NCBI GenBank assembly: GCA_040754455.1
Contig: JBFMCP010000001.1
Location: 96,001 to 160,000, forward strand
DNA from: Nitrospirota bacterium
Lineage (GTDB): Bacteria; Nitrospirota; Thermodesulfovibrionia; Thermodesulfovibrionales; Dissulfurispiraceae
Direction: 5' to 3'
Length of the DNA stretch: 64,000 nt
The notes beneath the pieces were generated by a model. The model made no database searches. It saw only the letters and a program-made list of their open reading frames with translations, and was not told the origin of the DNA. Made by a program: the position numbers and the translations under genes. Below are positions 4,868-23,651 of this stretch, piece after piece (the first letter of the stretch is position 1; each line of letters opens with the position of its first letter).

Positions 4868-4873
4868 CGCGAT

Positions 4874-5254: not shown

Positions 5255-5275
5255 TCCAAAAGGAGGGATACCGTA

Positions 5276-6214: not shown

Positions 6215-6236
6215 GAAATCGTTAAATCTTAATTGA

Positions 6237-6259
6237 GGGGGCGGTACATAGCCGCCCCC
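6237..6259 (+). other. GC stem-loop after the capsid gene (mRNA stabiliser or partial terminator)
   Basis: GGGGGCGG-tacatag-CCGCCCCC with no U-tract. Confidence 0.55.
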
Positions 6260-6283
6260 ATCATAAACATTGAGGGAGGAACA

Positions 6284-6882: not shown

Positions 6883-6896
6883 ACAGGAGGGATATC

Positions 6897-7379
6897 ATGG
6901 CCAGCAGGCGGATAGACGATCTTCACCCCTCAGTGCAGAAAAGGGCGGTCTTGCTGCTCGACAGGTGTGCTGAGCAGGGCATACAGGTAATCCTTATCTG
7001 CACCCAGCGGGACATGAAAGAGCAAGCCGCATTGTACGCACAGGGGCGGGAAGAGATAGCAAAGGTCAATGCACTCAGGGCAGTTGCCGGAATGGCCCCT
7101 CTCAAGAGCATTACAGAGAACAGGATCGTCACTAATGCAAAGCCGGGCGATTCACTCCACAATTACGGCCTTGCCTTCGACGTTGTCCCTCTGGAGGCAG
7201 GAAAGCCCATATGGGATTCAGGGCACCCCGTATGGCAGACCATCGGCAAGATAGGGAAAGAGTGCGGGCTTGAATGGGCGGGAGACTGGAAGAGGTTTAA
7301 AGAGTTTCCGCATTTCCAGTATACGGGCGGTCTTTCGCTCGCCCAGGTCAGACAGGGGCAGAGGCCCGAAAACGCATAG
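6897..7379 (+). CDS. Endolysin, M15 family (L-Ala-D-Glu-type) peptidase
   Basis: R..EQAALYAQGR, SLHNYGLAFD, WAGDW...EFPHFQ. Confidence 0.9.
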   Translation: MASRRIDDLHPSVQKRAVLLLDRCAEQGIQVILICTQRDMKEQAALYAQGREEIAKVNALRAVAGMAPLKSITENRIVTNAKPGDSLHNYGLAFDVVPLEAGKPIWDSGHPVWQTIGKIGKECGLEWAGDWKRFKEFPHFQYTGGLSLAQVRQGQRPENA

Positions 7380-7390
7380 GGGGGGGAACT

Positions 7391-7846
7391 ATGAGCTTAT
7401 TGAGTGCGATACCGGTGATAGGCGGACTTGTTGAGAAGGCATTCGGCATTATCGACAAGGCCGTCGAGGATAAGGACCTTGCAAACAAGATCAAGCAGGA
7501 AATCCAGATGACGGCCATGAATCACGACTACAGCGCATACGAAAAAGAGCTGGAGGCGAAAGCAGCAGCCCTCGTTGGTGAGATCAAGGGGCAGTCATGG
7601 CTTCAGAGAAACTGGAGGCCAGTGCTCATGCTCACCTTCACCTACATTATCGCCCACAATTACATACTTGCGCCGATCATCAGGATGTTCAGCTTCGGCG
7701 CCGGTATGCCGGTCCTTGAGATTCCTCCTGACATGTGGGACCTGCTGAAGCTTGGCATAGGCGGATATATTGTGGGCAGGTCGGCGGAAAAGATTGTCAA
7801 AGACTATCGAGGGCAGGGGGTGAGTCATGATTCAAGCAGGCGATAA
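7391..7846 (+). CDS. Holin, GTA/3TM type
   Basis: SWLQRNWRP, LLKLGIGGYIVGRSAEK; follows the endolysin. Confidence 0.85.
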   Translation: MSLLSAIPVIGGLVEKAFGIIDKAVEDKDLANKIKQEIQMTAMNHDYSAYEKELEAKAAALVGEIKGQSWLQRNWRPVLMLTFTYIIAHNYILAPIIRMFSFGAGMPVLEIPPDMWDLLKLGIGGYIVGRSAEKIVKDYRGQGVSHDSSRR

Positions 7847-8348
7847 GATTCTGGTTAAACCGCTCAGGAACATCATATCGGAGATCATCTCCGGCAAGGT
7901 GAATTCGCTCTACTCTCATGTAGAGCCGATCGTTGATAGCAGGGGGGGCGCTCTCGATTGCACATTTCCCAGAAACCGCATCAAGAGCATCTCTCAATAT
8001 TTTCACGGGAAGCACAGAGTACTCATCATCAGACCAGCGAAGCCGTACACCGCTGAGGAGTTGCTCGCCTGGACTGCAAAGGCGCTTGAAAAGGATGGCA
8101 CGTTCTATGATCTCTTCCGCCTCTGCTCTGCGCTCAATAACAAGCGCTGGAAAATGCGCCGGAATATGTGGGCCTGCGATACCGCCACCATGGATTGCGA
8201 TAAAGCAATCGGGCGGCATACCTGGGCGGAGTTCCCGTTTGTGAGTTATGAGATGTACCATATCCTCGCCCGTGAGGGCATCTATAAGATCGTGTATCAG
8301 GCCGAGCGTCCGACGATGGGCGATTTCCAGAAACTGGTGAGGGGGTAA
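7827..8348 (+). CDS. Permuted papain-like (YiiX/YebB NlpC/P60) protein
   Basis: GDKILV...YSHV (His precedes Cys), GTFYD, WACD. Confidence 0.65.
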   Translation: MIQAGDKILVKPLRNIISEIISGKVNSLYSHVEPIVDSRGGALDCTFPRNRIKSISQYFHGKHRVLIIRPAKPYTAEELLAWTAKALEKDGTFYDLFRLCSALNNKRWKMRRNMWACDTATMDCDKAIGRHTWAEFPFVSYEMYHILAREGIYKIVYQAERPTMGDFQKLVRG

Positions 8349-8350
8349 GT

Positions 8351-8827
8351 ATGGCACGGGTGCTGACAAAGTTCGGATTCAGGCGGCTTTTCACCATCGA
8401 GGAGCGGGCAGGCATCACCGCGGCCGCGGCGAGCGATGTGGTGCTCAAGACCATTATGGATGACCTGGCCTTTTCCGACGAGGTGGACCTCGACGATCCT
8501 GCAACGATCGAAGGCGTGAATTATCTCGTTGCCGGCGGGCTCATCACCGCAGAGCGGGCAGCAGCGATCCTTGCCACGCCTGCACCGGCAGCGCTCGAAC
8601 CGGTGATCAATTACACGGTAACCGTCAAGGCCCAGGCCGATATTACGCTGCAAAACAAATGGGGCGCTGTCGAGCGTCCCTGGGGATATGAAGTAAGGGC
8701 GGATTTCCGCAACGAGGCAACCGGCGAGGTGATCAATGAAGTGATAACCTTCCCTGCAGTTCCTACGGATGCAGAAGTAAACACAAAGATCACTGAAATC
8801 ATTAATCGTCTGAGGACCAATGGCTAA
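8351..8827 (+). CDS. Hypothetical virion-associated protein
   Basis: 158-aa ORF coupled to the next gene. Confidence 0.7.
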   Translation: MARVLTKFGFRRLFTIEERAGITAAAASDVVLKTIMDDLAFSDEVDLDDPATIEGVNYLVAGGLITAERAAAILATPAPAALEPVINYTVTVKAQADITLQNKWGAVERPWGYEVRADFRNEATGEVINEVITFPAVPTDAEVNTKITEIINRLRTNG

Positions 8828-10715
8828 CTACGTCAGCACACAGAGCGGCGACTGGAACAACCCAGCTACCTGGGGCGGCAGTGGTTACCCGCAGCTCGCC
8901 GGCGACACCTGCACGATCTCTGCGGGGCATACGGTTACGTATAACGTGCAGTCCGCAGTCGAGCTCGGACAGATCACTGTCAACGGTATTCTCAAGGCGA
9001 GCCGGGCAGTGAGTACAAAGCTCACGCTCGGGCATGCTGAGATTCTCATCAATAATGGCGGCGAGATGGACTGGGGGAAAGTTACTGACAAAATACCTAC
9101 CAGCGTTGTCGCAGAAATACTATGGAACACCACTGGAGACAATAGCAAGGGGATTAATGTCGCAGATGGGGGGAAGCTCAGCATTTACGGGGATCCTGCC
9201 TATTACGGCAGCACCAGGCGCACAGTATTGTATGCAGACTGGACGAGCGGGCAGAGCTTTCAGGTTGTAGGCGATCTGACAGGCAAATGGGCTGCAGGGC
9301 ATATCATTTATGTCCACAAAGGGGCGGCATATGCGTCTTCGACTACTGATATCACCAACCCGCTCACGATCAATACCGTCACTTACGACGGCACGAAGTC
9401 TACCGTCACAATCAATGAGGCTTTTCCGGGCGATACCTACAGAGCCGGCGGCATAGTGCTCAATGTGTCACGGAATGTAAAGCTCGGCAAGCTTAATCCG
9501 CAGACGAATATTGGGCAGACCAACAGCAACCGTCCGAGGATTAACGATGGAAATACTGACATTAATCACAATAATGTGAACATCTATGAAGCTTTGTTGA
9601 CCGGTTTCCATTCTCTGGTGCATACCTATAATTTAAAATTCAATGCAGTGATGCGGAATGGCGGATATGCACTTGCTAATTTTTCTATTGACGCCAGGAA
9701 TGCGTCGATTGACGGTATTTTTATATCCAACAGTTTTGGAGTCTACATTCATAATACATCTACCATTTCCGGTATTTTTGTATCGCACGTAAGGTCTCTC
9801 GACAACCTGCAGAACTGTATTATTCAGAATGCCGAAGTCCTGAGCAGCTCAACGGGAGCTCTCGGCTGGTACACGATCAATAATAAGATCATCGACTCGT
9901 ATTTTTACGCCAACTATGCTGCTTATCCATCGGTTTCCTCGTTCAATTATATGAAAGGCGGAGCGCTCGGCTACTCTCCTGAAGGGTTCTCCATGCCGAA
10001 CACGTACGACTCGAATTTCCAGCAACAGACGAAGCATTTCTTGAGCAACGTCAAGCTGCCTGCTGCGGGGCTGTCGCTCAATTTCAGAAATAATTCCGGA
10101 TTGAAAGCGCGGGTATTCTCCGAGCATCACAATCAGGTGAAGGACGCTGTGTATCAGTATGACGCTTTTGCCGATCTCATCAAAAACACCTCTACGCTCC
10201 GCACCGGCGGCGCGTCTTCATCGATCGAAGCTGTGCCGCTCTCAAACTGCTCAACGATCAATGATGTGATGCTCTTCGAATGGTACGAGGAGAACGTGCC
10301 GGCAATGCAGCATACGCGCTCGATCTACATGAAGGGCGAGGGCTGGTCCGGCTTCCCGCTGCATACCGAGCTGTACTTCGAGGCGGAGTACCTCGACCAG
10401 GCCTCTGGTGTGCATACGGCAAAGGCGCAATCAACGACTGTGCTCGCCAACAATATCGACTGGACAGAGTTTCCTGTCACCTTTACCCCTGCGCAGAGCG
10501 GGTGCGTGATATACCGAGCATATCTGAAAAAGTATCAGGCAGCCGCAAAGGTCTATGTTGATACACAGCTCAATAGATTGGGGATGCCTGCCAAACGCGC
10601 GGTGTGGTCACAAGGCGAGTGCAGGTTGATGGTTTCGAATTATGATGATGTCGGCTTCAACATGCCTCTTGAGACAGTGGATATTTCTTCGCAATACGAG
10701 GTGATCGAGTTATGA
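8820..10715 (+). CDS. Large fibre/appendage-like protein (G8-like N-terminus, beta-helix centre, CBM-like C-terminus)
   Basis: SGDWNNPATWGG...AGDTCTISAGHTVTY; Asn/Ile-rich repeats; WTEFPVTFTP. Domain calls are by eye. Confidence 0.65.
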   Translation: MANYVSTQSGDWNNPATWGGSGYPQLAGDTCTISAGHTVTYNVQSAVELGQITVNGILKASRAVSTKLTLGHAEILINNGGEMDWGKVTDKIPTSVVAEILWNTTGDNSKGINVADGGKLSIYGDPAYYGSTRRTVLYADWTSGQSFQVVGDLTGKWAAGHIIYVHKGAAYASSTTDITNPLTINTVTYDGTKSTVTINEAFPGDTYRAGGIVLNVSRNVKLGKLNPQTNIGQTNSNRPRINDGNTDINHNNVNIYEALLTGFHSLVHTYNLKFNAVMRNGGYALANFSIDARNASIDGIFISNSFGVYIHNTSTISGIFVSHVRSLDNLQNCIIQNAEVLSSSTGALGWYTINNKIIDSYFYANYAAYPSVSSFNYMKGGALGYSPEGFSMPNTYDSNFQQQTKHFLSNVKLPAAGLSLNFRNNSGLKARVFSEHHNQVKDAVYQYDAFADLIKNTSTLRTGGASSSIEAVPLSNCSTINDVMLFEWYEENVPAMQHTRSIYMKGEGWSGFPLHTELYFEAEYLDQASGVHTAKAQSTTVLANNIDWTEFPVTFTPAQSGCVIYRAYLKKYQAAAKVYVDTQLNRLGMPAKRAVWSQGECRLMVSNYDDVGFNMPLETVDISSQYEVIEL

Positions 10716-11044
10716 AAGCCATAAAGCTGGTGAAGGGCGAAAAAAGGGATTTGAAATATCAGCTCAAGGAGAACGGCGCGGTGAAAGACATCACCGGCAT
10801 GACCTTCAAGTTCGCTGCGAAAGCCACTCGGACAAGCGCGACGTATCAGATCAATCCTATAGCGGCTGCGCTCGATGATCCGCTGAATGGAAAGTTTTCC
10901 TTTACGCTTACGGCTGCGAACGCTACGGGAGCGGTCTTCAAGGGAGTCTATGAAATCTCCATGTATGATGCCGGGTCGAACAAGACCGTGCTTACTACAC
11001 CGGGCGGCGATCCGATCGAGATCGTCGAGGACATTGTGGATTAA
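10712..11044 (+). CDS. BppU N-terminal-like adaptor protein
   Basis: KGEKRDLKYQL...DITGMT...DPLNGKFSFTLT...YEISM. Confidence 0.55.
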   Translation: MKAIKLVKGEKRDLKYQLKENGAVKDITGMTFKFAAKATRTSATYQINPIAAALDDPLNGKFSFTLTAANATGAVFKGVYEISMYDAGSNKTVLTTPGGDPIEIVEDIVD

Positions 11045-11482
11045 ATGGATATCGCAGTTCTGGAAGATAAGCTTATCGAGACGCTCAAGCAAGGGATGAC
11101 GTATCTCAAGTACGCCGACACCTACCAGGGTGAACTCGACGAGAAGAGCATTGCCCAGTTCGCCATGAACTTCCCGGCGCTGCTCATCTATATGGAGGAT
11201 ACGACGTACACGAACAGATCATACCCTATGATGTGGCAGAATGCGCAGTTTACGATCCTTCTGTGCGACCGGAACCTGCGCGGCAACAAGAACGCCAGGC
11301 GCGGGGACCTGTCGAATCCGGGTACATATAAAATGCTGGCCGATGTTTATTCGTTGCTGCATGACAAGACGCTCGATCTGCTCACGTATCCGCTCGTGGC
11401 CGTCTCCGAGCATGCGCTGATCAATAGTAGACAATTGTCGGTCTATGCAGCTGTATACAAGACTAAGCAACCTAAGAATTAA
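11045..11482 (+). CDS. Tail terminator/completion protein, Mu gp37/DUF1834-like
   Basis: LEDKLIETLK...DTYQGEL...FPALLIY...GTYKML; lies upstream of the tube gene. Confidence 0.78.
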   Translation: MDIAVLEDKLIETLKQGMTYLKYADTYQGELDEKSIAQFAMNFPALLIYMEDTTYTNRSYPMMWQNAQFTILLCDRNLRGNKNARRGDLSNPGTYKMLADVYSLLHDKTLDLLTYPLVAVSEHALINSRQLSVYAAVYKTKQPKN

Positions 11483-11493
11483 AAGGAGGAGTT

Positions 11494-11667
11494 ATGGAAG
11501 ACGAGAGGAAGCCGGGAGCATATGTGATCGGTCCGGACGGCGAAGCGGTACCTGATCTCATGGATGAAGCTATGAAAAAGAGAAAAGAGCTTACTGAGGA
11601 ACCGTTCCCCGCATCAAGCGGAGGGAAAAAAGGCAAGACCAAGGAGGAGGTAAAAGAGAATGCTTGA
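11494..11667 (+). CDS. Small hypothetical protein (57 aa, below the ORF-track cutoff)
   Basis: AAGGAGGAG RBS; MEDERKPGAYVIGPDGEAVPD...ENA*. Confidence 0.7.
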   Translation: MEDERKPGAYVIGPDGEAVPDLMDEAMKKRKELTEEPFPASSGGKKGKTKEEVKENA

Positions 11668-12601
11668 TGCAAAGGCATTGATACTCGCAAAAGTAGAGGC
11701 CACCTACGGCGTCGATGCGGTGCCGGCAGCGGCAAATGATGCCATTGTCACTGGCCCGGTGAAGTTCGAGGTGATCGAGGAGAGCAAGGAGCGCGCCGTG
11801 GTGCTCCCTTATTTCGGCAAGCTGAACGCGATCAAGATCGGCACCGGCGTGAAGCTCTCATTCGGCACCGAGCTGCGGCCCTCCGGAGCTGCAGGCACGG
11901 CACCGCGCCTGGGCGTGCTCTTCAGGATCTGCAATTTCTCCCAGACGATCACACCGGGCGTCAAGGTCGACTACGATCCTGTTACTGCGCAGGACGGCGA
12001 GTCGGCGAGCATCTATTTCTACAACGACGGCTTTCTATACAAGGTCCTGGGCTGTGTCGGGAATTCACTGAAGCTCAGCGGCAAGACGAACGAGATCGGC
12101 ACGATCGATTGGGAGATCACCGGCCTCTGGGGAGGTCCCGCATCTATCACTGAAGTCGCATTCCCCACGCCGACCTACGGAGAAGTGGATCCGCAGCTCT
12201 TCAGGAGCGCCAATTTCACCATTGACGCCTATGCGGGAATCATTGATGCGTGCGAAGTGTCCGTATCGAATTCGGTGATCCTGAGGAAGGATGCCAATGC
12301 CGCCAACGGCATCAAGCGTTACTCGACGAACGGCAGAGAGGTGAGCTTCAGCTGCGATCCCGAAGTGGTCCCGCTGGCAACGTACAACCCCTGGTCCTTG
12401 TGGGACGCGAACACTCCCGGTGCGGCCAATGTTACGTTCGGTCAGACAGCAGGCAAGAAGTGCGTTGTCTCGCTGCCGAATGTCCTCAAGGACGTGCCCA
12501 AGCTCGGAGAGCGGGAGGGGATCAAGAAATATGATCTTACCGGCAAGGCGAATCCGACACTGACAGCAGGCAATAACGAAGTGAAATTTTCGTTCCAATA
12601 A
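11660..12601 (+). CDS. Major tail tube protein (siphovirus type)
   Basis: LILAKVEATYGVD..., ends GNNEVKFSFQ; precedes the chaperone and tape measure genes. Confidence 0.8.
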   Translation: MLDAKALILAKVEATYGVDAVPAAANDAIVTGPVKFEVIEESKERAVVLPYFGKLNAIKIGTGVKLSFGTELRPSGAAGTAPRLGVLFRICNFSQTITPGVKVDYDPVTAQDGESASIYFYNDGFLYKVLGCVGNSLKLSGKTNEIGTIDWEITGLWGGPASITEVAFPTPTYGEVDPQLFRSANFTIDAYAGIIDACEVSVSNSVILRKDANAANGIKRYSTNGREVSFSCDPEVVPLATYNPWSLWDANTPGAANVTFGQTAGKKCVVSLPNVLKDVPKLGEREGIKKYDLTGKANPTLTAGNNEVKFSFQ

Positions 12602-12628
12602 AAAACGTTTAAGGAGGTTTTAAACAGT

Positions 12629-13051
12629 ATGAGGGACCTTGGAAAAGCGGACAACAAAGTCACATTCAGGGACGGTATATCGGGCTCAAAGATAACCCTG
12701 TTCTACCGCACGCCCACGACAGAGGAGCTGCAGGAGTACTACTCCAATTCGATGATCAGGAAGCAGGGCAAGACCATTGCCAATGCAGTCAATGCACGGG
12801 TCGACTTTGCAGAGAAGATACTCACTGGCATCGGAGAAGGCTGCTTCGGTATCAATAAAAAGCCGATCTCATCTAATCCCGAATCTCCGGATTATAAGGA
12901 GAACTGGAAGGCCCTGGTAAAGGAGAGCGCCCCTGATATTCTGGACACGTTCATCATCATGACCTTTGAGCGGAGCAGCATCCAGGCTGTTCTTACTGAA
13001 GGGGACGGAGGAGAGGAAGAGCTCCCTTTGTCGAAGAGCTCAGAAGGCTAA
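12629..13051 (+). CDS. Tail assembly chaperone (gpG analogue)
   Basis: Position between tube and tape measure genes; slippery heptamer near the 3' end. Confidence 0.8.
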   Translation: MRDLGKADNKVTFRDGISGSKITLFYRTPTTEELQEYYSNSMIRKQGKTIANAVNARVDFAEKILTGIGEGCFGINKKPISSNPESPDYKENWKALVKESAPDILDTFIIMTFERSSIQAVLTEGDGGEEELPLSKSSEG

Positions 13052-13308
13052 ACGACAGATGCACACCGGCAAAAAAAAAGGAGTGTGCCAAGAACTCGGG
13101 ACCTGGCCTGCCGATCGTCTGCAGCACCTGTGCGGCCAGGGAGCCCTATGAGCCTTCTGAGTGGTTCAACCATGTGTGGTTTTTATACGAGCTGCAGCGG
13201 GGAGGTTATCCGTTCCAGAAAAATGACCTCTCCCTCGAAGAGTGGATTGCAATAGGAGTGTTGAAGGAAGAGATAGATGCCATGAAAATGGGGCTGATGA
13301 TTAAATGA
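13024..13308 (+). CDS. -1 frameshift extension of the tail chaperone (gpGT analogue)
   Basis: C CCT TTG at 13024-13030. The -1 frame stays open (PFVEELRRLNDRC...GGYPFQKNDLSLEEWIAIG...) to TGA 13306-13308, which overlaps the tape measure ATG. Confidence 0.82.
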   Translation, partial: PFVEELRRLNDRCTPAKKKECAKNSGPGLPIVCSTCAAREPYEPSEWFNHVWFLYELQRGGYPFQKNDLSLEEWIAIGVLKEEIDAMKMGLMIK

Positions 13309-15431
13309 ACGAGATCGAGCTGATAATTACTATGGACAATTCCGGACTGGTCACCGGGGTGAGGACCGCAAGCGGTGAGATTGTGCAGTTCGGGAAATCT
13401 GCCGCTGAAGCATCTGATAAAGCGAGTGCGGGTTTCGGTGTGCTGCAAAAATCGTTGCAGGAGATGGCGATCCAGGCAGCCGGTTTTTTTGCCGCATTCA
13501 AAGCCGGTGACTGGGCGAAGGATATCATCAAGGACTCTACGCTCCTTGCCGCTCGTGTTGAGACTTTGGGCGTCGTGATGAATGTCGTTGGCCGTAACGC
13601 CGGGTATTCGTCGCAGGAAATGAAGATGTATGCCGACAGCGTCAAGGCCATGGGCATTACCACGCAAGAAAGTATGCAGACGGTCATCCGAATGGCGCAA
13701 GCGAACCTCGACCTTGCCAAATCCTCGCAACTGGCCCGTGTCGCACAGGACGCCGCGGTCATCGGCAATGTGAATTCCTCAGAGGCATTGGGCAGGCTCT
13801 TGCACGGCATCACTACCCTGCAGCCCGAAATCCTCAGAACCATCGGCATCACCGTCACCTTTGAGGAGGAATACAAGAAGTTCGCATCTACAGCTGGCAG
13901 GACTGTCGACTCCCTCTCTCAGCAGGAAAAACAGCAGATCGCCTTGAATGCGGTGCTCAGAGAAGGAGAGAAAATAGCGGGTACCTATGAGGGCGCCATG
14001 GGCACTGCTGGGAAGCAGATCACCTCCATATCGCGCTACGCCGAAGAGGCCAAGGTGAAATTCGGCCAGTTGTTCACTCCTGCCCTGAACGATTCAGTCA
14101 AGCTCCTGTCGAGTGGGCTCAGTTTCTTGAATGATCAGCTCGAACGACTGGTTGCCGGGCTCGGCAGGGCCGACCGGATGTCGAACCTGTACTCCCAGCT
14201 TGCAAGGATCGACGAGGAGATCGCACAGCGCGAGAAGGGATTTTTCGGGATAACTCCGCGCGCCGGGAGCCTGGCTGAAAGGCAGTTGGAGTGGTATAAA
14301 AGGAAAAGGCTGGAGATTGCCCAGGAGTTGCTGGACTTGCAGACGCCTGACAGAGTTGATGCTCCTGCAGGGGCTGCAGGGTCTGCAGGGGCTGCAGGGG
14401 CTGCAGTCGACAAATACAATGAAGACAATGATCCCAAGATTATTGCCCTGCGGGCTCGAGTCAGAGGCGTCGGCGAGTTGGCTAAAAAAGAAATCGAGCT
14501 TCAAAAAGAAAAGGAAGCCAAAATCGCCGAAATCAGTAAGCGCTACCTCAAAGAAAAGGAAGATGCTGACCGGGATTATGCCGAATGGTACGAGCGCATG
14601 TATGAATTCAGACTGCAGAGGGAACAGGAGATGTTGGATCGTTCTGCAGCACTGAATCGGCAGCGACTGGAAATGCAGCGGCAGGAATATGAGGAGTACT
14701 GGTCCATGGTTATGGGCAACGCGAACATGGTCGGCGGTGAGATGGGCAAAGGCCTGGGCATGATGGCCGCAGGCATGAAGGGGATCACCGACGTTCAGAT
14801 GGGCGTCGACCCTTATTCCGAAAGGCTGGAAAGACTGCGTGAATATTACAACGCAGAAATAACGCTATTGCAGGATGCGCGCGCGACGCAAACGACTATC
14901 GAGCAAGCTTTTGCGCAGTACCAGATTGAGAGCGATCAGATCACCGCACAGCAACGCATTGCTACTGCCCAGAACCTTGCAGGCATGCTGGCCGGGATTA
15001 TGTACTCGATGTACGTGGCAACCGGGAAGCACAACAATGCAATGTTTGTCATGTACAAAGCTTTTGCCGCGACCGAAGCGCTGATCTCCACCTATGCGGG
15101 AGCAGCGCGGGCCTTGAAGGATTTCAAATTTCCTTACAATATTGCAGTGGCCGCAATTATCACCGCAGCGGGCCTGGCCAGGGTTGCAGCAATCGTCTCA
15201 CAGAAACCGGGCTCTGCAGCCCCTGTTGCAGCGGTTCCGGCAGGGGGCGGCTATGGCTATAAGGATCCGAATCAGCCCGCGTTCGAGCCGACTCAGGCAG
15301 CAGCTCAGGAAACTCCCCGGCCGATGACAGTCACAATTTATAACTACGGCATTCTCGGGACCGATCAGGACAAGATCGCCCGCGATCTGGTCCCTGCGCT
15401 GCAGAAAGCAATGGATGACGGAGCGCACTAA
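13305..15431 (+). CDS. Tape measure protein
   Basis: 708 aa, Ala-rich helical sequence with hydrophobic C-terminal segments; canonical position. Confidence 0.88.
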   Translation: MNEIELIITMDNSGLVTGVRTASGEIVQFGKSAAEASDKASAGFGVLQKSLQEMAIQAAGFFAAFKAGDWAKDIIKDSTLLAARVETLGVVMNVVGRNAGYSSQEMKMYADSVKAMGITTQESMQTVIRMAQANLDLAKSSQLARVAQDAAVIGNVNSSEALGRLLHGITTLQPEILRTIGITVTFEEEYKKFASTAGRTVDSLSQQEKQQIALNAVLREGEKIAGTYEGAMGTAGKQITSISRYAEEAKVKFGQLFTPALNDSVKLLSSGLSFLNDQLERLVAGLGRADRMSNLYSQLARIDEEIAQREKGFFGITPRAGSLAERQLEWYKRKRLEIAQELLDLQTPDRVDAPAGAAGSAGAAGAAVDKYNEDNDPKIIALRARVRGVGELAKKEIELQKEKEAKIAEISKRYLKEKEDADRDYAEWYERMYEFRLQREQEMLDRSAALNRQRLEMQRQEYEEYWSMVMGNANMVGGEMGKGLGMMAAGMKGITDVQMGVDPYSERLERLREYYNAEITLLQDARATQTTIEQAFAQYQIESDQITAQQRIATAQNLAGMLAGIMYSMYVATGKHNNAMFVMYKAFAATEALISTYAGAARALKDFKFPYNIAVAAIITAAGLARVAAIVSQKPGSAAPVAAVPAGGGYGYKDPNQPAFEPTQAAAQETPRPMTVTIYNYGILGTDQDKIARDLVPALQKAMDDGAH
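14365..14406 (+). repeat. 9-bp tandem repeat (CTGCAGGGG x ~4.7) in the tape measure gene
   Basis: ctgcagggg ctgcagggt ctgcagggg ctgcagggg ctgcag. Confidence 0.9.
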
Positions 15432-16204
15432 TGAACCCGATCATTCTCTACGACAATAGGTTCAATGATGCCATCCCCACGGCAACGGATACCGCCGCAG
15501 GCTATGACGTGCTGAATATCAGAGATCTGAGGACCTACACCTTCCATAAGTTCACCGGCAGCGGGACGAAGTATTATTACATCAACTGCGGGTCAGGAAA
15601 AACGGCCGACTGTCTGGCGATCATATCTCATAACCTGGGGACAGCGGGCGCAACGGTGTCGGTCGAGAGCTCCGCGACCGGTGCATGGACAGGCGAGCAG
15701 GTAGAGCGCCTGGCCGGGTTCGTGCCCACAAGCGACAAGGCGCTGCTCAAAACATTCAATTCCGCTACCGCTCAATTTTGGCGCGTAAAGATTGTGACGG
15801 CTGCAGTGGCCGCGCAGGTCGGCGTGCTCATGCTCGGCACAAAGCTGCTCTTCCCCTATCCTCCGGACACGCCATACAGGCCATACTCAGAACGCATCGA
15901 GGCCAATACGTCTCTCAGCAAGACGGGCAATATACTGGGCTCTACGATCAGGTATTACCCGATTGACGTTGTCGCTCCCTTCTCAAACCTCACACGAACC
16001 TGGGTGCTCGATAATTTCAAACCCTTCTGGATCAATCACGGCCGAAAGCTCAATCCGTTCTTCTACGCCTGGGACCTCGATGTCTATCCGGATGACGTCC
16101 TCTTCCTGGCCTGCTCGCCTGATATGGTCTACGAGCTGCCGGTGAGCGTGCTTGCATACATTGACAGCATCATCCTCCGGATGCAGGGAGTCAGTGAGGT
16201 ATGA
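15431..16204 (+). CDS. Tail protein (distal-tail position)
   Basis: 257 aa, coupled to the tape measure stop. Confidence 0.7.
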   Translation: MNPIILYDNRFNDAIPTATDTAAGYDVLNIRDLRTYTFHKFTGSGTKYYYINCGSGKTADCLAIISHNLGTAGATVSVESSATGAWTGEQVERLAGFVPTSDKALLKTFNSATAQFWRVKIVTAAVAAQVGVLMLGTKLLFPYPPDTPYRPYSERIEANTSLSKTGNILGSTIRYYPIDVVAPFSNLTRTWVLDNFKPFWINHGRKLNPFFYAWDLDVYPDDVLFLACSPDMVYELPVSVLAYIDSIILRMQGVSEV

Positions 16205-17919
16205 CGTACGCCGACGAATTAGGTAAGATTACACGCATACCGGTCACCCTTGTGGTGATCACGCTCGATTACTGCGGCAGGACCTTCGGCGTCGATCCAT
16301 GTCTGGCAACCGGCTCCAAGTGCTGGAACACCTTCAAGACCTGCAAATACAAGACTGCTTATCTGAAACAGAGCAAAGACTACAAGATCACCTCTGCCGA
16401 TGCGCCTCTGCCGTTTAAGACCGGCGAGCGGCCGTATCTGCAGCGTGTGAAATATCTCCCGACTGAGATCAAGGATAGTTTTACGGTGAATGCCAGGGTC
16501 ACCATAGAATGCTATGACGTGCCTGATACCGATGTGGGCATAGATCCCTATGTCACCACGCGCAGCGCCTTTCCCAACATTCCGGGGACATTTTGGAAAA
16601 AGCTCATCACCCGCAACAAAAACTACAAAGGCCGCACGGTGAAGATCTACGAGGGCTTCCTGGGGCTCGCAGAGAACGAATTCGAACAGAAGTTCGTCGG
16701 GACCATCGACAACATTACCCTGGGGGAGGGAGAGGTAAAGATCGAGGTTGTGGACCTCCTGAAGTCGCTCTCAAATGTGGAGATTCCGCCCAAGGTCGAT
16801 ATCAAGCTGGTATCGGATACAGCGATCGACGCAGCAACGATCACGCTGACGACGCTTACGGGCCTCTATGCGGCTCCGGCCTACATCCGCATCAAGGATG
16901 ACATTATTTACTACACCGGCACCGCAGGGGGCAACCAGATCACCGGATGCATCTGGGGCCAGTTCGGCAGTACGAAGGAAGCCCACAAGGCGAAAGATAA
17001 GGTGCAGCCGGTCCGTTACATCCCGCCGACGGACGGCTTCGACATCATGAAAACACTGCTCACGACCGATTCGGGGATCGATGCATCATATGTAGATACC
17101 GCTGCCTTTGATTACTGGAAAGCGTGGCCTGAGACGGATATGAACTTCTCGGCCATCATCTCCGAGCCGACCAAGGCGGATAAGCTCTACTTCGAGCTGG
17201 TGGATCTCCTCGACTGCAAATCATGGGTGGCCGAGGACCTCAAGATCACCATCAAGCGCAATGTGCCCAACGAGCCCGGCAGGGGATACAAGACTATCAC
17301 CGATGCGGCGAATATCATCCACGATTCGGCAAGCGTAGACCTCAATGAAAAGTCGCGCATCACCCGGATGCTGCTCTATTGGGACAGGATAGCGATCGGC
17401 AAGGTGGACGATGTGAACGCCTACAACCGCCTCGATATCGGCCTCGACAGCGATGCAGAGGGCGACAATGACTATAACGACATCGTCGAGAAAAAGGTCT
17501 TCTGCCGGTGGATCCGGAGCGGGTACGAAACCGAGGAGACGGTCAACAATTTCATCAAGGACCTCCTCGCCCGGCAGGTATGGCGGCAGCGCGACGCCAT
17601 GCCCATTCTACAGTGCTCGCTTGAGCTGAAGGACAGCGACATCAAGACCGGCCAGTTTACCAAGGTCAGCACCGACGAACTCCTGCAGCCTGACGGCAAC
17701 CCGATCGACAAGGTCATCATGCAGGTGATCAGGAGGGAAATGCAGGACCGCCTGGTGAAGGTAAAGCTCCTGCAGCTGACCCCGAGGCGGCTTGCCTATA
17801 TAGCGGCAGACGATACGCCTGATTATGCAAGCGCCTCTGATGCGCAGAAAGAGTATGGCTTTATAACTGACGATGAGGCCCTGATGCCGGACGGCACTGA
17901 GGGCTACTACACATATTAA
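16201..17919 (+). CDS. Tail tip/hub protein
   Basis: 572 aa; N-terminal Cys cluster (YCGRTFGVDPCLATGSKCWNTFKTC) as seen in siphophage tail-tip proteins. Confidence 0.72.
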   Translation: MTYADELGKITRIPVTLVVITLDYCGRTFGVDPCLATGSKCWNTFKTCKYKTAYLKQSKDYKITSADAPLPFKTGERPYLQRVKYLPTEIKDSFTVNARVTIECYDVPDTDVGIDPYVTTRSAFPNIPGTFWKKLITRNKNYKGRTVKIYEGFLGLAENEFEQKFVGTIDNITLGEGEVKIEVVDLLKSLSNVEIPPKVDIKLVSDTAIDAATITLTTLTGLYAAPAYIRIKDDIIYYTGTAGGNQITGCIWGQFGSTKEAHKAKDKVQPVRYIPPTDGFDIMKTLLTTDSGIDASYVDTAAFDYWKAWPETDMNFSAIISEPTKADKLYFELVDLLDCKSWVAEDLKITIKRNVPNEPGRGYKTITDAANIIHDSASVDLNEKSRITRMLLYWDRIAIGKVDDVNAYNRLDIGLDSDAEGDNDYNDIVEKKVFCRWIRSGYETEETVNNFIKDLLARQVWRQRDAMPILQCSLELKDSDIKTGQFTKVSTDELLQPDGNPIDKVIMQVIRREMQDRLVKVKLLQLTPRRLAYIAADDTPDYASASDAQKEYGFITDDEALMPDGTEGYYTY

Positions 17920-17931
17920 CGAGGTGAGAAT

Positions 17932-18912
17932 ATGGCCTGGAATCCTTTAAACGATACCGAAATCCAAGTGGGAAAGCCTGTAAAAAGGACCTTGTGGCAG
18001 AAGATCAAAGATAGTCTCGAATACCTCTACGGCCAGCTGGCCCCTTCCGGAGCCGACAGCGGCGTGCCGAACGGCTCTTTCGAAGTAGACTCCGACAGCG
18101 ATGGCATCCCTGACCGGTGGACGCGCACCCTTTACGCAGGCGGTTCCGGATCATTCGAAACCGGCTCACCGGCCCACGGCGCAAAGGCATGGAAGTTCGT
18201 GCACCCCGGAGGAGTAGGCAACGGCGGAGGCTACCTGGACTCTGACTATATAGAGATATCCCAGCTCAAGACCTACGTGCTTGGATACACCACATGGGCC
18301 TCTGCAGCGGGTATGCGCAACTTGGTGCAGCTGCTCTATTACAACACTTCGAAGGTCTATCTCAGCACTACGACGCTCTATGATTCCCAGGCAAACCCTG
18401 CAACGCCGACCACATATCTTTCGCAGTATACCCCACCGGCGAATTCACGATTTATCAAGATACGACTCATCGGCGGCAACAGTGATGTGAATGTGGCCGG
18501 TACGGCGTATTTCGATGACATCAAGAATCAAGAGGCTGTGGCGACCGCGCATATGCTCAACAGCAGCGTGACCACTGCGAAGATCGCGGACAGCAACGTG
18601 ACCACTGCGAAGATCGCGGATGACAACGTGACGAATGCGAAGATGAGAAAGACGTTTTCAGAGAGTAATAGCGGATATATTTCTTCTGGAGCATATTGGT
18701 ATCCGACTGCCGGATACTATTCATGGTTTTATCCAGAGGGAACTGGATGGGAGTATGAGGTCTATGTTAGTGGTGCTGGTACTTGGAAGTATGGAGTTGC
18801 GTGTGATGCTTTTGCGGCTCAACTTTTCGGCTCTATGGTGGACGGAAGTAATTATAGGTTTCATAACACGAATATATCATCTCAGATAATAAGATATAGA
18901 AAATTAGATTAA
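17932..18912 (+). CDS. Tail fibre/receptor-binding protein with CBM-like domain
   Basis: NGSFE...PDRW...AYFDDI carbohydrate-binding pattern; VTTAKIAD repeats; aromatic-rich tip. Confidence 0.75.
   Translation: MAWNPLNDTEIQVGKPVKRTLWQKIKDSLEYLYGQLAPSGADSGVPNGSFEVDSDSDGIPDRWTRTLYAGGSGSFETGSPAHGAKAWKFVHPGGVGNGGGYLDSDYIEISQLKTYVLGYTTWASAAGMRNLVQLLYYNTSKVYLSTTTLYDSQANPATPTTYLSQYTPPANSRFIKIRLIGGNSDVNVAGTAYFDDIKNQEAVATAHMLNSSVTTAKIADSNVTTAKIADDNVTNAKMRKTFSESNSGYISSGAYWYPTAGYYSWFYPEGTGWEYEVYVSGAGTWKYGVACDAFAAQLFGSMVDGSNYRFHNTNISSQIIRYRKLD
18561..18645 (+). repeat. 30-bp tandem repeat x ~3 (SVTTAKIADS-type)
   Basis: cagcagcgtgaccactgcgaagatcgcgga / cagcaacgtgaccactgcgaagatcgcgga / tgacaacgtgacgaatgcgaagatg. 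Confidence 0.9.
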
Positions 18913-18928
18913 GGAGAAATGTAAGAGC

Positions 18929-19165
18929 ATGCTCAATTTGGCTGCAATAAAAGAGAAGTATAAGATCGATACAACACAGGAAGCCTTTCAGCAATTCCCG
19001 GCTGTTATGAACGGGCAGATACTTTTGGAGTCAAACGAACGGGGGACTGTCACCATTGACGAAGCGACGTTCGTCGCGATCTATGGGGACCCGCTGCATG
19101 ACTTTGTTGCCTCGGGCCATGAAAAGTATCGACAGAAGTTTATAGCCGAAGGGCTTGTCGTATAG
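18929..19165 (+). CDS. Hypothetical protein (possible fibre chaperone)
   Basis: 78-aa ORF directly after the fibre gene, AAGGAG upstream. Confidence 0.6.
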   Translation: MLNLAAIKEKYKIDTTQEAFQQFPAVMNGQILLESNERGTVTIDEATFVAIYGDPLHDFVASGHEKYRQKFIAEGLVV

Positions 19166-19193
19166 AGGAAGGAGCAGCAGCTATGAAGTGATG

Positions 19194-19340
19194 TATAATA
19201 ATGCCGTTCGGACGTGAGCAACTCCGCTAACCGGAGCGCTGGCTTAACCCGTAACCTTAATGCTTCGCAGGATAGTATCCAACTCCCTCGTTGGGAGACC
19301 TGGACAACCCGCCCGGCCATAGGTTTCGGGTTATTTTTTT
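19194..19340 (+). ncRNA. Candidate structured leader/sRNA with -10 box and terminator
   Basis: TATAAT at 19194-19199; hairpins 19222-19236 and 19283-19297; stem 19306-19332 followed by A-T7. Confidence 0.5.
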
Positions 19341-19353
19341 CGGGAGGCGGCAG

Positions 19354-19512
19354 ATGGCTGATACGGAGAAAACAAAGGCGTGGAAGAAAAAGCTCGCTGA
19401 GGTCCTGAAAGAGCATCCGGAAGTGGGACCAAAGTTCACCGGCAGGATAGAGGTCAACTTCAACGAAGGAGGAGTCACCAAGGTTTACATAAAGGACAAA
19501 GAATTGAAGTAA
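19354..19512 (+). CDS. 52-aa basic micro-protein, YezD/DUF2292-like
   Basis: GGAGG RBS; MADTEKTKAWKKKLAEVL...FTGRIEVNFNEGGVTKVYIKDKELK. Confidence 0.65.
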   Translation: MADTEKTKAWKKKLAEVLKEHPEVGPKFTGRIEVNFNEGGVTKVYIKDKELK

Positions 19513-19553
19513 GAGCGGACAGGTAATAACTCAGATTTTCGGAGAGCTATGAG

Positions 19554-19591
19554 GCCCGGAGCATGATAACTCTGGGCTTTTCTTTTTTTTT
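19554..19591 (+). terminator. Intrinsic terminator directly upstream of the methylase gene
   Basis: GCCCGGAG-catgataa-CTCTGGGC then a long T-rich tract. Confidence 0.75.
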
Positions 19592-19607
19592 GCAGGGAGG
19601 CTGTTAT

Positions 19608-20378
19608 ATGAATAGAAAGAGTTTCCTGTCGTACCTCGGCGGCAAATCACTGCTGGCCAATAAGATCATCCCACTTATCCCTTCTCATTAGTGCTACTGC
19701 GAGGTGTTCGCCGGGGCGGCCTGGCTATTATTCAAAAAGAACGAATCGGAGGTGGAGATCATCAATGACATCAACACAGATCTGGTGACGCTCTACCGGG
19801 TCGTCAAGCATCACCTCGACGAGTTCATCCGCTATTTCCGCTGGATACTTGTAGCCAGGGAAGAGTTTGAAAGATTCAAAGCGGAGAACCCTGGAACACT
19901 CACCGATATCCAGCGGGCCGTCAGGTTTTACTACCTGCTCAAGAACGGCTATACAGCGCGGGTCCGCAATCCCTCATTCGGCATAAATGCTACACGGCCG
20001 TCGAGCTTCAACCTCCTCCGGATCGAGGAGGACCTTTCAGCCGCGCATCTGAGACTTGCCAGGGTCTTCATCGAGAACCGCCCCTACCAAGCCCTCCTGG
20101 AGCGCTTTGACAAGCCGGGGACGTTCTTCTATATCGACCCTCCGTACTGGGGATGCGAGGACGACTATGGCAAGGGGATATTCTGCAGGGACGATTTCAA
20201 ACACCTGAAGACGATCCTGGAGAGGCTCCAGGGCAAGTTTATCCTGTCCTTAAACGATCGGAAAGAGGTCCGTGACCTGTTCAAAGGTTTCAAGATCCGT
20301 GAGGTCTCCACCTCCTACAGCGCAGCCGGAGGAAACAACCTGAAGCGGGTCACCGAGCTGCTGATCATGAACTATTGA
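19608..20378 (+). pseudogene. DNA adenine methyltransferase (D12/Dam family) with in-frame TAG at codon 28
   Basis: GGGAGG RBS; MNRKSFLSYLGGKSLLANKIIPLIPSH*CYCEVFAGAA...NDIN...YIDPPY; TAG at 19689-19691. Confidence 0.85.
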
Positions 20379-20438
20379 GAGGTTTTAGAAAGGGAATTTA
20401 GAAGCCGGTTAAACGGCCTCAAAAGGGCCGTTTCCGGC

Positions 20439-20678: not shown

Positions 20679-20870
20679 ATGAGTACATTGAAGGACAAAG
20701 TGAAGGAGATGGAGCGTGAGGAGATTCTCCACGCACTCCGGGAGAGCGACTGGGTGATGGCGAAGGCGGCCCGAAAGCTTGGTATCACCGAACGGATGAT
20801 CGGCTACAAGATCAAGAAATACGGGATACGAAAGGAGGAAGACAGGGAGCCATCATTGAACAGCCACTGA
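20679..20870 (+). CDS. Stand-alone Fis-type HTH resembling the NifA C-terminal DNA-binding domain
   Basis: GAGGTG RBS; EREEILHALRESDWVMAKAARKLGITERMIGYKIKKYGI. Confidence 0.82.
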   Translation: MSTLKDKVKEMEREEILHALRESDWVMAKAARKLGITERMIGYKIKKYGIRKEEDREPSLNSH

Positions 20871-20947
20871 GCAGGAAATAAATAGATATTACTACAGAGC
20901 GGGCGTTGTCCGCGTAATGAATAATTACAAATTGGTTGGAGGAAGTT

Positions 20948-21853
20948 ATGAGAGTCATGAGGAATATTAGGAGTCTTATTGCAGTAATGGCGTTAGTGCT
21001 GGCAATTTTGGTAACCGGCCTGTATGCCGAGGAAGTGAAGAAGGTGGACGGCAAGGAAGTCCACGAGGTTGGTACCGAGAAAGGGGCGACCCTGGCGCAT
21101 ACGGTGGAGCCGGCAACAGCACCGGTATCAGGCAGCGCATCGGTGGGCATTTTCAATAGGTACATCTTCAGGGGCTATGAGCTGAGCAACAAGAGCATCG
21201 TGATCCAACCTGCTCTTTCGGTATCCTACAAGGGCTTCTCTGCTACACTCTGGAGCACTATCGACAGCGATGAGCATGCAACGCAGTCCTTTGCGCCTGA
21301 CAGACCGGGACAGAAGAGCTTCAATGAGACCGATCTCACGCTGAGCTGTACCTATGTTCTGGGCAAGCTCAGCCTCACCGGCGGTTACATCTACTACGGC
21401 ACCAAGTATGCGGATGAGACAGAGGAGCTGTTCGTCACTGCAAGCTATGATATGCTGCTGAAGCCTACGCTGTCGGTGTACCGTGACATCAATGAGTATC
21501 CCGGCACGTACATCAACCTCGCAATAGCCCACTCGTTGCCGGTCTATAAAGAGATCACCCTTGATCTGGGGGCATCGGCAGGATACTTTGTAGGAGACGG
21601 CAGCTACTGGAAGACCTTTGAGTCATCGACTGGTGATTACACGGGCAAGAAGTACAGCGCATTTCATGACGGCATGGTAAAGGCCGGTCTGACCATTCCT
21701 GTGGCAAAGAACATATCGGTGCAGCCCACCGTGCAGTACTGGTTCCCGCTTTCGAGCAAGGCGAAGAAGACAGTTGATGGGAACTCATACAATCGCAATG
21801 GAAAGCTCGATGAGACCTTTGTGTACGGCCTGGCGGCGACATTGAGCTTCTAA
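20948..21853 (+). CDS. Outer-membrane beta-barrel (TorF/TIGR02001-like putative porin)
   Basis: Signal peptide; NRYIFRG...QP; ETDLTL; C-terminal Phe. Confidence 0.72.
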   Translation: MRVMRNIRSLIAVMALVLAILVTGLYAEEVKKVDGKEVHEVGTEKGATLAHTVEPATAPVSGSASVGIFNRYIFRGYELSNKSIVIQPALSVSYKGFSATLWSTIDSDEHATQSFAPDRPGQKSFNETDLTLSCTYVLGKLSLTGGYIYYGTKYADETEELFVTASYDMLLKPTLSVYRDINEYPGTYINLAIAHSLPVYKEITLDLGASAGYFVGDGSYWKTFESSTGDYTGKKYSAFHDGMVKAGLTIPVAKNISVQPTVQYWFPLSSKAKKTVDGNSYNRNGKLDETFVYGLAATLSF

Positions 21854-21868
21854 ATAAAGGAGATAATT

Positions 21869-23233
21869 ATGAAACGGTTATTGAGCATATTACTCATACT
21901 AGGATTATTGGGAATCGCAGGAGTTGTGTTTGCAGAAGAGCAGGCACCAACTAACCCTCCTACCCCCGCCGTGGCTGCGGCTGAGCTGGCCCCCCCTGCT
22001 CAGCCCGCTCCGGCCCCCAAGCTGGACACCGGGGACACGGCATGGATGATTGTTGCTACAGCGCTGGTCATGCTGATGACCGTACCCGGACTGGCACTAT
22101 TCTACGGCGGCCTTTCGAAACGTAAAGATACCCTCAACACTATTGCCATGTCCTTTGTGACCTTCTGCATCGTGAGCGTTCTCTGGGTCCTCTATGGATT
22201 CACCTTCAGCTTCAGCGGTGATATCAGCGGCTTTATCGGCGATGGTGCAAAGCTTTTCCTTAAAGGCGTGGGGCCAAACAGCATCAACGACCTTGCCAAG
22301 ACCATACCCGAAAATATCTTCATCGTCTATCAGCTTACGTTTGCGGCAATCACGGTAGCGCTGGCGAGCGGTGCCTATATCGAGAGGATGAAGTTTTCGG
22401 CGTGGGTGCTCTTTTCAGTGCTCTGGATGACCTTTGCCTATGTCCCGGTGGCGCACTGGGTGTGGGGCGGCGGCTTCCTCGCCAAGCTCGGGGCTCTGGA
22501 CTTTGCAGGTGGTACGGTGGTGCATATCAACGCAGGTATTGCCGCACTGGTCGGCGCTCTCATGTTGGGCAAGAGACGTGAGCGTGCCCTTATTCCCAAT
22601 AACCTCACCCTGGTGGTCACGGGTGCAGGGCTGCTGTGGTTCGGCTGGTTCGGCTTTAACGCCGGTTCTGCCCTTGGAGCAAGCGGCCTTGCCGGAGCAG
22701 CGTTCATCAATACCAATACGGCAACCGCTATTGCAGCAGTAGCGTGGATGCTCGTGGAGTGGATGCACTCGAAGAAGCCGACCGTTTTGGGTCTTGCCTC
22801 CGGCGCGGTGGCTGGCCTCGTCGCCATCACCCCGGCTGCAGGATTTGTGAACATCAGCGGCGCCCTGATCATCGGCGCAGCAGCCGGTATTGTGTCCTTC
22901 TTCTCGGTAGCGGTAATGAAGTCCAAGCTCGGCTATGATGATACGCTCGATGCCTTCGGCATTCACGGCGTAGCAGGTACACTCGGAGCGATTCTCACCG
23001 GAGTATTTGCCGATCCGTCGGTGAACGAGCTGGGCAAGGGTCTGCTCTACGGCAATCCGGGACAGCTCATGACCCAGATTATTGCTGCCGGCGTAACCAT
23101 CGTCTATACCGGCGTGGTCACCTTCGTCATCTTCATGATCATCAAGGCAGTGGTCGGACTGAGGGTCGATGCAGAAGCCGAAATAGCGGGCCTCGATGAA
23201 AGTGAACACGGAGAAAAGGCGTACAATTTATAA
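21869..23233 (+). CDS. amtB: Ammonium transporter
   Basis: GDTAW, AHWVW, DFAGGTVVH, LWFGWFGFNAGS, DDTLDAFGIHG, EHGEKAY. Confidence 0.96.
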   Translation: MKRLLSILLILGLLGIAGVVFAEEQAPTNPPTPAVAAAELAPPAQPAPAPKLDTGDTAWMIVATALVMLMTVPGLALFYGGLSKRKDTLNTIAMSFVTFCIVSVLWVLYGFTFSFSGDISGFIGDGAKLFLKGVGPNSINDLAKTIPENIFIVYQLTFAAITVALASGAYIERMKFSAWVLFSVLWMTFAYVPVAHWVWGGGFLAKLGALDFAGGTVVHINAGIAALVGALMLGKRRERALIPNNLTLVVTGAGLLWFGWFGFNAGSALGASGLAGAAFINTNTATAIAAVAWMLVEWMHSKKPTVLGLASGAVAGLVAITPAAGFVNISGALIIGAAAGIVSFFSVAVMKSKLGYDDTLDAFGIHGVAGTLGAILTGVFADPSVNELGKGLLYGNPGQLMTQIIAAGVTIVYTGVVTFVIFMIIKAVVGLRVDAEAEIAGLDESEHGEKAYNL

Positions 23234-23240
23234 TCGTTAA

Positions 23241-23651
<411 letters not shown>

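Follow-up and report, generated by a model that had tools for sequence, protein, structure and literature searches.

A candidate antitermination cassette with a repeated RNA module ahead of a prophage DNA methylase gene

The right end of a prophage in the genome of a Nitrospirota bacterium carries a gene for a D12-class N6-adenine DNA methylase that lies behind two predicted terminators, and the question raised by this locus is how transcription is brought to such a gene. The DNA analysed, called the window below, is the stretch of 64,000 nucleotides (nt) at positions 96,001 to 160,000 of contig JBFMCP010000001.1 (assembly GCA_040754455.1), and all window coordinates refer to it. The element under study, 19166-19610, comprises a leader, a gene for a protein of 52 amino acids (aa) and the spacer that leads into the methylase gene. 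An earlier reading of the sequence alone (the sequence-only reading) had seen here a leader in which one terminator arm has three mutually exclusive partners, and a DUF2292-like micro-protein, together gating the methylase in a manner comparable to com/mom of phage Mu. From the comparison of relatives it is estimated, with about even chances, that 19166-19610 is a portable phage regulatory cassette whose protein, as a dimer, would bind a repeated RNA module and suppress the terminators. Protein-controlled termination is known in kind; keyword searches of the open-access literature found no description of this cassette, and both the protein family and the RNA motif are undescribed.

A repeated RNA module and two terminators

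When 61 related genomes were searched at the DNA level, 19169-19581 was found again with 90% identity in genome G001 and with 85% in G025, between flanks that are unrelated on both sides, and a second locus of G025 retains leader, open reading frame (ORF) and methylase at 73% identity. More distant cassettes were obtained from a profile search of 401 genomes, 12 of which gave a match, and from viral contigs, and the window's own genome carries two further cassettes on contig C2. Leader, micro-protein gene and the two terminators are conserved together as a unit, a point on which the sequence-only reading had staked its own refutation. Two loci from a metagenome scan with the protein, L035 and L036, were discarded after the family profile did not confirm them.

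When the leaders and the spacers behind the ORF were lined up, a unit of about 45 nt emerged that occurs three times in each cassette. In the window these are R1 (19206-19251), R2 (19267-19311) and R3 (19514-19558), all on the plus strand, which the covariance model matched with 29.9, 36.3 and 31.8 bits, respectively. The module consists of GG, WYAG, the first strand of a 5-bp helix P1, AA, a helix P2 of 4-6 bp with a variable loop (19222-19226 with 19232-19236 in R1), ANCU, the second strand P1', A and CCCG. The covariance model held only four P2 pairs, P1 being absent from it, and 24 modules were realigned. Among these, P2 was 95.8% paired and P1 81.7% paired, with both sides changed in four of the five P1 pairs. 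The covariation score of the module was 0.44; shuffled sets gave 0.19, with 0 of 500 reaching 0.44, and slid partners did not exceed 0.17. The frequency of G-U pairs in the helices points to RNA of this strand and not to a DNA palindrome. The unpaired bases are near-invariant as well (C40 and U41 in 24 of 24 modules, A16 in 23, A15 in 22). These data show that the modules are structured RNA, and the sequence-only reading was right to look for a conserved motif in front of each terminator, since it exists and is supported by covariation. Internal loops of 4x2 and 2x4 nt flank the P1 helix, and the module may be regarded as quasi-twofold symmetric.

In release 15 of Rfam, which the sequence-only reading had proposed to consult, no usable match was obtained: the best ones within 18800-20000 had E values of 1.1-9.9, far under the gathering threshold, and at the gathering score there was none in the window and eight related loci. 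Double-stranded DNA operators or Mu-type transposase sites were rejected as an identity for the repeats because of asymmetric loops, many G-U pairs and a gap between the P2 arms that ranges from 2 to 12 nt. A metabolite riboswitch was rejected because no conserved core exists beyond the repeated module, which also occurs after the gene. A coding region hidden in the leader was ruled out by indels between relatives that are not multiples of three.

R1 and R3 each directly precede an intrinsic terminator, and R2 lies inside the first. The predicted structures T1 and T2 both show the G+C-rich stem and subsequent U-run by which such terminators are recognised. T1 (19246-19340, plus strand) is a helix of 19246-19257 with 19321-19332 (11 of 12 bp) drawn around R2 at its apex and followed by A-T7 (19333-19340); the AACCCG with which R1 ends opens its stem. 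T2 (19551-19591, plus strand), obtained from a terminator scan and from folds, has an 11-bp stem (19551-19580) with six G-C pairs, then TCTTTTTTTT, the T-run extending to 19591, and its 5' arm overlaps the 3' end of R3. The terminator scan gave 2 sites against 2.2 expected, no better than chance.

The duplex energy of T1 is -16.7 kcal/mol, compared with -4.8 (sd 2.5) for shuffled arms, none of 500 being as good. The corresponding long-range helix, of 10-14 bp and enclosing R2, belongs to the minimum-energy fold in 8/8 leaders, with energies from -16.7 to -22.4 kcal/mol that 0-1 of 500 shuffled arms equalled, and in G300, L059 and C2b (one of the contig C2 cassettes) the arms have changed on both sides with the helix retained. 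A strong hairpin with a U-run begins 0-3 nt behind R3; the z-scores of this terminator are -2.9 to -4.3 in L003, L029, L014, L024, L011 and L059, and the window copy is weaker. A DNA pattern written for the long-range helix found nothing in the viral contigs and nine loci in the genome contigs, two of which (L029, L031) are cassettes and seven chance matches in simple repeats. Conservation that stops at the flanks, covariation of the helices and the presence of the long-range helix in all eight leaders indicate that the cassette is more than a chance arrangement.

The elements from which the sequence-only reading built its three-way competition are all in place: AACCCG at 19306-19311, GAGACCT at 19295-19301, AACCCGTAACCT at 19246-19257 and the 3' arm AGGTTTCGGGTT at 19321-19332. 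The long-range stem proved to be conserved, and the AACCCG of R2 is an alternative short 5' arm for the same 3' arm, the resulting 6-bp local hairpin being weaker than the 12-bp long-range stem. GAGACCT, however, is not conserved in relatives, and in place of a competition of three partners the comparison revealed a repeated RNA module of a size suited to a protein.

The small protein and its co-occurrence with the module

The small gene (19342-19512, plus strand) has the ribosome-binding site (RBS) GGGAGG at 19342-19347, an ATG at 19354 and a TAA at 19510-19512. A phmmer search of 1.84 billion representatives gave 19 matches at E<=1e-3, of which 15 are proteins of 49-77 aa and the 4 long ones probably spurious. 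A profile search of a collection of 5.8 billion proteins yielded 45 small proteins, 0 with a Pfam domain; among the members named by their source, all but one are called hypothetical protein. Judged by these sequence comparisons, the 52-aa ORF is a real gene of a conserved family of small phage proteins, in which W10, K11, L18, T29, G30, G39 and G40 are near-invariant.

No Pfam, NCBIfam or PHROG family matches the protein. The DUF2292-like label had to be given up: PF10055 (DUF2292/YezD) gave no match at E up to 10 for the ORF, 17 family members and 7 relatives, and a six-frame search of the window's own genome with it found nothing. The sequence contains no cysteine, which precludes a four-cysteine zinc finger of the Com type, and no Com match was obtained. 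Likewise, no CAT-type Pfam match was seen in 17 family members at E up to 10, and family scans found no similarity to the N or Q antiterminator families. A profile search of solved structures returned a single, meaningless match at E 1.2; the closest clusters in the protein atlas, which score 0.87 at best, consist of unnamed viral proteins and serve as a lead only.

The AlphaFold model of the monomer, one helix and a beta-hairpin, is of low confidence, with predicted local distance difference test (pLDDT) values of 57.9 and 60.9. The two-copy model reached an interaction prediction score from aligned errors (ipSAE) of 0.60, compared with 0.00 for the best of three controls. Among the calibration proteins, 20 of 30 whose solved structures are pairs attained the mark, and so did 1 of 23 single-chain ones. 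The dimer runs agree in at least 96% of contacts, the partner pLDDT is at least 77, and the interface is made of strand 29-37 and the helix. The protein is thus predicted to form a homodimer, which the modelling supports and does not prove.

Module and protein were found together. In the window (64 kb) there are three module matches, all in this cassette, and in its whole genome (3.27 Mb) nine, in three cassettes that each contain a family member. G001 has three matches in its cassette, G025 six in its two cassettes and G300 three in its cassette, so that in these four genomes 21/21 matches fall inside cassettes; G368 and G277 have 0 matches. Of 151 genomes sampled from the class, three contain matches, and all three have the protein. 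These counts show that protein and module co-occur exclusively.

It is nevertheless conceivable that the modules are recognised by RNA polymerase, by a host factor or by another phage antiterminator, and that the 52-aa protein is merely linked to them and has an unrelated role. Its lack of any detected RNA-binding domain would fit such a division, as would the third module of C2b and of G001, which does not lie between the protein gene and the cargo; Xp10 p7 and P23-45 gp39, moreover, are reported to be small phage antiterminators that target RNA polymerase and need no site in the RNA. This explanation is nonetheless unlikely, given that modules never occurred without the gene in the 151 sampled genomes and that distant homologues with 30-45% identity still have a hairpin and a terminator right after the stop codon.

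Cargo genes and a possible mechanism

The start codon of the cargo gene, that is, the gene behind the cassette, is found 0-20 nt after the T-run; the gap is 16 nt in the window, roughly 18 nt in L024 and roughly 10 nt in L059, and in L014 it is 0 nt. The RBS of the methylase begins 4 nt after the T-run of T2. There is no room for a promoter in front of the cargo, and its transcription must therefore cross T2. Transcription can enter the small gene only by passing T1, and the cargo only by passing T2.

Among the eight leader-bearing cassettes, five precede DNA-modifying genes and a sixth precedes the reverse transcriptase of a diversity-generating retroelement (DGR). The D12 methylase follows in the window, as a nonsense allele, and in L029, where an internal deletion removes DPPY. 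In L024 and L014 the cargo is a PF22555 DAM-like and PF22559 GNAT-like protein, assigned by Pfam scan for L024 only, the L014/L071 homologue having been read from the sequence. In L059 a ParB_N protein is followed by a TET-associated glycosyltransferase (TAGT; phrog_842), and in L025 the reverse transcriptase is next. G001 has no phage cargo, a host response-regulator gene coming next, and in L031 the contig ends after the cassette. The sequence-only reading is supported in that DNA-modifying genes follow the unit in five cassettes; the unit is not specific to methylases, however, as relatives also stand between portal and head-protease or scaffold genes.

A reading without any switch must be set against this list. 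T1 would then be the plain end of the tail operon, T2 that of the small gene, and the function of the hairpins would be to stabilise 3' ends; the methylase would be expressed by leak-through or not at all. The damage to both methylase copies (the TAG of the window, the deletion of the DPPY motif in L029), the rearranged look of the window prophage and the G001 cassette without cargo would all agree with it. However, two of the modules sit in a 5' leader, where stabilising a 3' end would serve no purpose; the unpaired module bases are invariant; the design recurs before intact cargo in L024, L014 and L059; and the methylase is intact in contigs from two other sequencing runs. It is considered quite unlikely.

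The wider family bears on the direction of the effect. Distant members show the gene, a hairpin and a strong terminator that opens with A(A/G)CCC. In viral contigs the family profile confirmed 22 loci beyond L059; the 12 examined represent 11 distinct downstream sequences, all of which have a long terminator stem and U-run, the preceding short hairpin being clear by eye in most. The order gene, hairpin and terminator also occurs in other bacteria (L015, L016, L017, L020). The link to these distant loci rests on folds and inspection because the covariance models do not reach those copies. In L011 the gene lies between portal and scaffold-like genes and in L038 the next downstream gene is a head protease, the next gene starting 0-45 nt after the terminator in both. 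Terminators before scaffold and protease genes must be overcome during lytic growth, and this favours antitermination over enhanced termination.

The same protein and RNA could in principle work in the opposite sense, the protein stabilising termination and repressing its own synthesis, as TRAP and PyrR do, with cargo made only in a short pulse until the protein has accumulated. Co-occurrence and anatomy would be identical, and the minimum-energy folds form modules and terminators together, with no conflict. Against it speak the relatives that immediately precede scaffold or head-protease genes and leave no space for a promoter, since genes needed in bulk would be cut off there. This reversed action appears distinctly improbable.

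For the antitermination reading the following sequence of events can be proposed. The leader RNA would arise by read-in from the tail operon or from a promoter that is weak or depends on an activator, and in it R1 would be followed by the long branched T1 with R2 at its apex. Transcripts that pass T1 alone would encode the 52-aa protein, and those that also pass R3 and T2 would reach the methylase. The protein would bind the quasi-symmetric modules as a homodimer and, by way of an overlap pairing P0 (CGG with CCG), would sequester the CCCG segment at the start of each terminator stem; deprived of CCCG, the terminator would not form and transcription would continue. The leader has two such 5' arms, one after R1 and one after R2, and both would have to be sequestered, which could make the switch delayed, steep and self-reinforcing, with the DNA-modifying enzyme off in the lysogen and on late. 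Ribosome-coupled attenuation was rejected as a mechanism because the distance from stop codon to module varies from 0 to about 150 nt.

As to the promoter, a candidate -10 element TATAAT without a -35 is present at 19194-19199 (plus strand) and invariant in four close relatives. A promoter scan flagged nothing at 19194-19199, where there is no acceptable -35. A perfect TATAAT precedes R1 by 7-75 nt in seven of eight leaders, and the eighth has CATAAT. Activator-dependent transcription at this element and read-in are the two candidates. The conserved block in front of it (19166-19193, plus strand; AGGAG...ATGAAGTGA), where the homology of the relatives begins, is possibly an activator site. Its sequence is probably a remnant of the 3' end of an upstream ORF present in an ancestor: in L009 ATGAAGTAG is the end of a 191-aa ORF, and the in-frame peptide of the block start, read directly from the sequences, is alike in the window, G001 and G025. 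A functional two-codon mini-ORF (ATGAAGTGA) was rejected, being the tail of that ancestral ORF. That the leader acts mainly as a small RNA of about 135 nt from TATAAT to T1, in trans or by titrating the protein, is very improbable, and compatible with antitermination in any case: the -10 element, stable structure and terminator are all there, and a constitutively terminated phage leader is described as a small RNA in Shiga-toxin phages (PMC7547250), but the third module lies outside such an RNA, and the module of G300 begins 5 nt past a Mor stop codon, so that the RNA may be merely the end of the Mor transcript.

Several observations weigh against the proposal that the protein binds the modules and suppresses the terminators. 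The P0 pairing is formed in 76% of cases with almost no variation, hence without covariation support, and no alternative fold comes near the predicted terminators in stability. In the protein no RNA-binding domain can be recognised, the net positive charge is modest and the monomer model is poor (pLDDT 58-61). The fold of the window leader (z -1.51, equalled by 15 of 200 shuffles) is not significant, and the spacer folds (z -1.05 and -0.95) do no better than shuffled sequences. Close relationship (73-90% identity) among four of the eight leaders reduces the independent lineages to about five. Beside distant homologues the covariance models detect no modules, the best being L037 at E 0.17. In C2b the protein gene abuts the reverse transcriptase gene with no T2 between them, and a third module (L025 2793-2837) follows that gene without a terminator; in G001 the cassette has no cargo and a response-regulator gene follows.

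It is tempting to go further and to regard the cassette as a self-contained two-part antitermination switch, made of a dimer of about 50 aa and a quasi-symmetric hairpin, that would serve diverse phages as a movable gate before DNA-rewriting enzymes, among them methylases, hypermodification enzymes and a DGR reverse transcriptase, and in head operons, and would act in an all-or-none manner because both leader sites must be filled. This fuller version is put forward tentatively, as it is somewhat doubtful in our own estimate.

Among known systems, com-mom of Mu appears to be the closest in arrangement, and BglG/LicT with its RNA target, or lambda N/nut, the closest in mechanism, by analogy. BglG, SacY and LicT use a dimeric RNA-binding unit of about 55 aa on a quasi-symmetric ribonucleic antiterminator (RAT) hairpin with two asymmetric internal loops, which overlaps the 5' arm of a terminator. 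The predicted dimer, the 4x2 and 2x4 loops around P1 and a module ending in the CCCG that opens the terminator are comparable. The cassette differs in having no CAT match, a helix plus beta-hairpin fold, no PRD sensor domains, three modules, a phage location and an overlap pairing (P0) that is putative. With lambda N/nut and Q-type systems it would share a small phage protein, a cis-acting RNA hairpin with conserved flanks, the passing of terminators and a temporal delay. Each terminator has its own module 0-3 nt upstream here, which sets it apart from lambda and suggests local rather than processive action.

As in com-mom of Mu and the Com-plus-methylase operons of FluMu, Pnm1 and B3, a DNA-modifying gene lies here at a prophage end, with Mu-type head genes and behind a small regulatory gene; in Mu com-mom a harmful modifying gene is under strict late control, as would be the case here. 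Mu-like prophages are described as carrying an adenine methylase in place of mom (PMC3299994). Control in the cassette would be exerted by two intrinsic terminators and a repeated RNA module, whereas in Mu a hairpin that hides the RBS is opened; the only strong structure at the methylase RBS (GGGAGG at 19595-19600, after the T-run) is the terminator, and there is no RBS-masking hairpin. The analogy with com/mom drawn by the sequence-only reading is supported by the modification genes behind the unit, by Mor/C-type genes upstream in three loci and by the Mu-type portal and Gp36 genes of the window's prophage, and has to be given up for Com itself, whose translational hairpin has no counterpart. 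The Mor-family genes of L059, L071 and L024 (26.5-34.1 bits; Pfam cut-off 24.9), each situated upstream of its cassette, stand beside tyrosine integrases, which distinguish these related phages from Mu; no Mor gene was found on the window's contig. A Lar-like or Ogr-Delta-like zinc-ribbon ORF (L024 964-1239) was seen immediately upstream of the L024 cassette, the second one in the window's own genome, and downstream of a Mor-family gene.

The cassette of L025 (G000:C2:110869-114033), with two modules, a terminator and a 61-aa family member before the reverse transcriptase gene, lies between the template repeat and that gene in a DGR with bAvd and an FGE-type variable protein. Descriptions of DGR layout are not known to include a cassette of a small protein and a terminator, and no DGR adjoins the cassette of the window itself. 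The order of this DGR was read as FGE-type variable protein, bAvd, template-repeat-like ORF, cassette and reverse transcriptase. Its third module runs directly into the start of a response-regulator gene, and the cassette of L003 (G001) also precedes a response-regulator gene; these junctions may mark a prophage end or attachment site.

If the proposal is true, it would explain how DNA-modifying enzymes are silenced in lysogens of temperate phages outside the enterobacteria and how the reverse transcriptase of a retroelement is silenced, and would offer a concrete candidate for the control of DGR activity. The unit is small (about 450 bp, one 52-aa protein) and looks modular, so that it could become a compact genetic switch.

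Methylase alleles and prophage setting

The methylase gene (19595-20378, plus strand; ATG at 19608) matches PF02086 at 7.4e-30 and phrog_56 at 1.2e-86 and contains IDPPYWG. In this assembly an in-frame TAG at codon 28 (19689-19691), missed by the sequence-only reading, interrupts the gene. Position 19690 reads C in the contigs of runs X3 and X4, giving TCG (Ser) as in L029, so that the methylase is intact there and the nonsense allele is polymorphic among samples. Position 19533 is A in this assembly, a P2 mismatch in R3, and reads C in the X2 contig, which restores the P2 pair as in G001. In the contigs of four runs, over the 1301 bases of 19100-20400, 19533 and 19690 are the only two variant sites, and both fall in functional elements, the P2 stem of R3 and codon 28 of the methylase. 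The three runs covering both sites each carry at least one lesion (X1 both, X2 the TAG, X3 the P2 mismatch); rare variants are hidden in contigs, and the DNA analysed here may have come from X1 and X2. In L029 the homologous methylase (596-1222, minus strand) has an internal deletion and a frameshift with loss of the DPPY region, and with the TAG of the window both D12 copies beside a cassette are damaged.

Upstream of the cassette lie tape-measure and tail-fibre genes (13305-18912) and a 78-aa ORF matched by no family (18929-19165). Further left of the tail genes the prophage has genes matching Portal_Mu and Mu Gp36 and also a terminase. The Mu-type portal and the terminase (window 1-3048) are on the minus strand and diverge from the plus-strand protease, capsid, lysis and tail genes (3767-18912), and the layout looks unusual or rearranged. 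An ORF of 631 aa with a G8 domain and without PHROG match was found between the lysis and tail genes (window 8820-10712). In L011 (827-2992), the P22-type portal is split into two adjacent ORFs, both matching PF16510, and these are followed by the small gene with its terminator, the scaffold-like gene and the capsid gene. To the right of the prophage, the host DNA at window 20679-23651 contains a 63-aa ORF of the Fis type with a helix-turn-helix and a Gcw_chp-family protein, together with genes that, by the look of the sequence alone, resemble those for an ammonium transporter and a PII protein.

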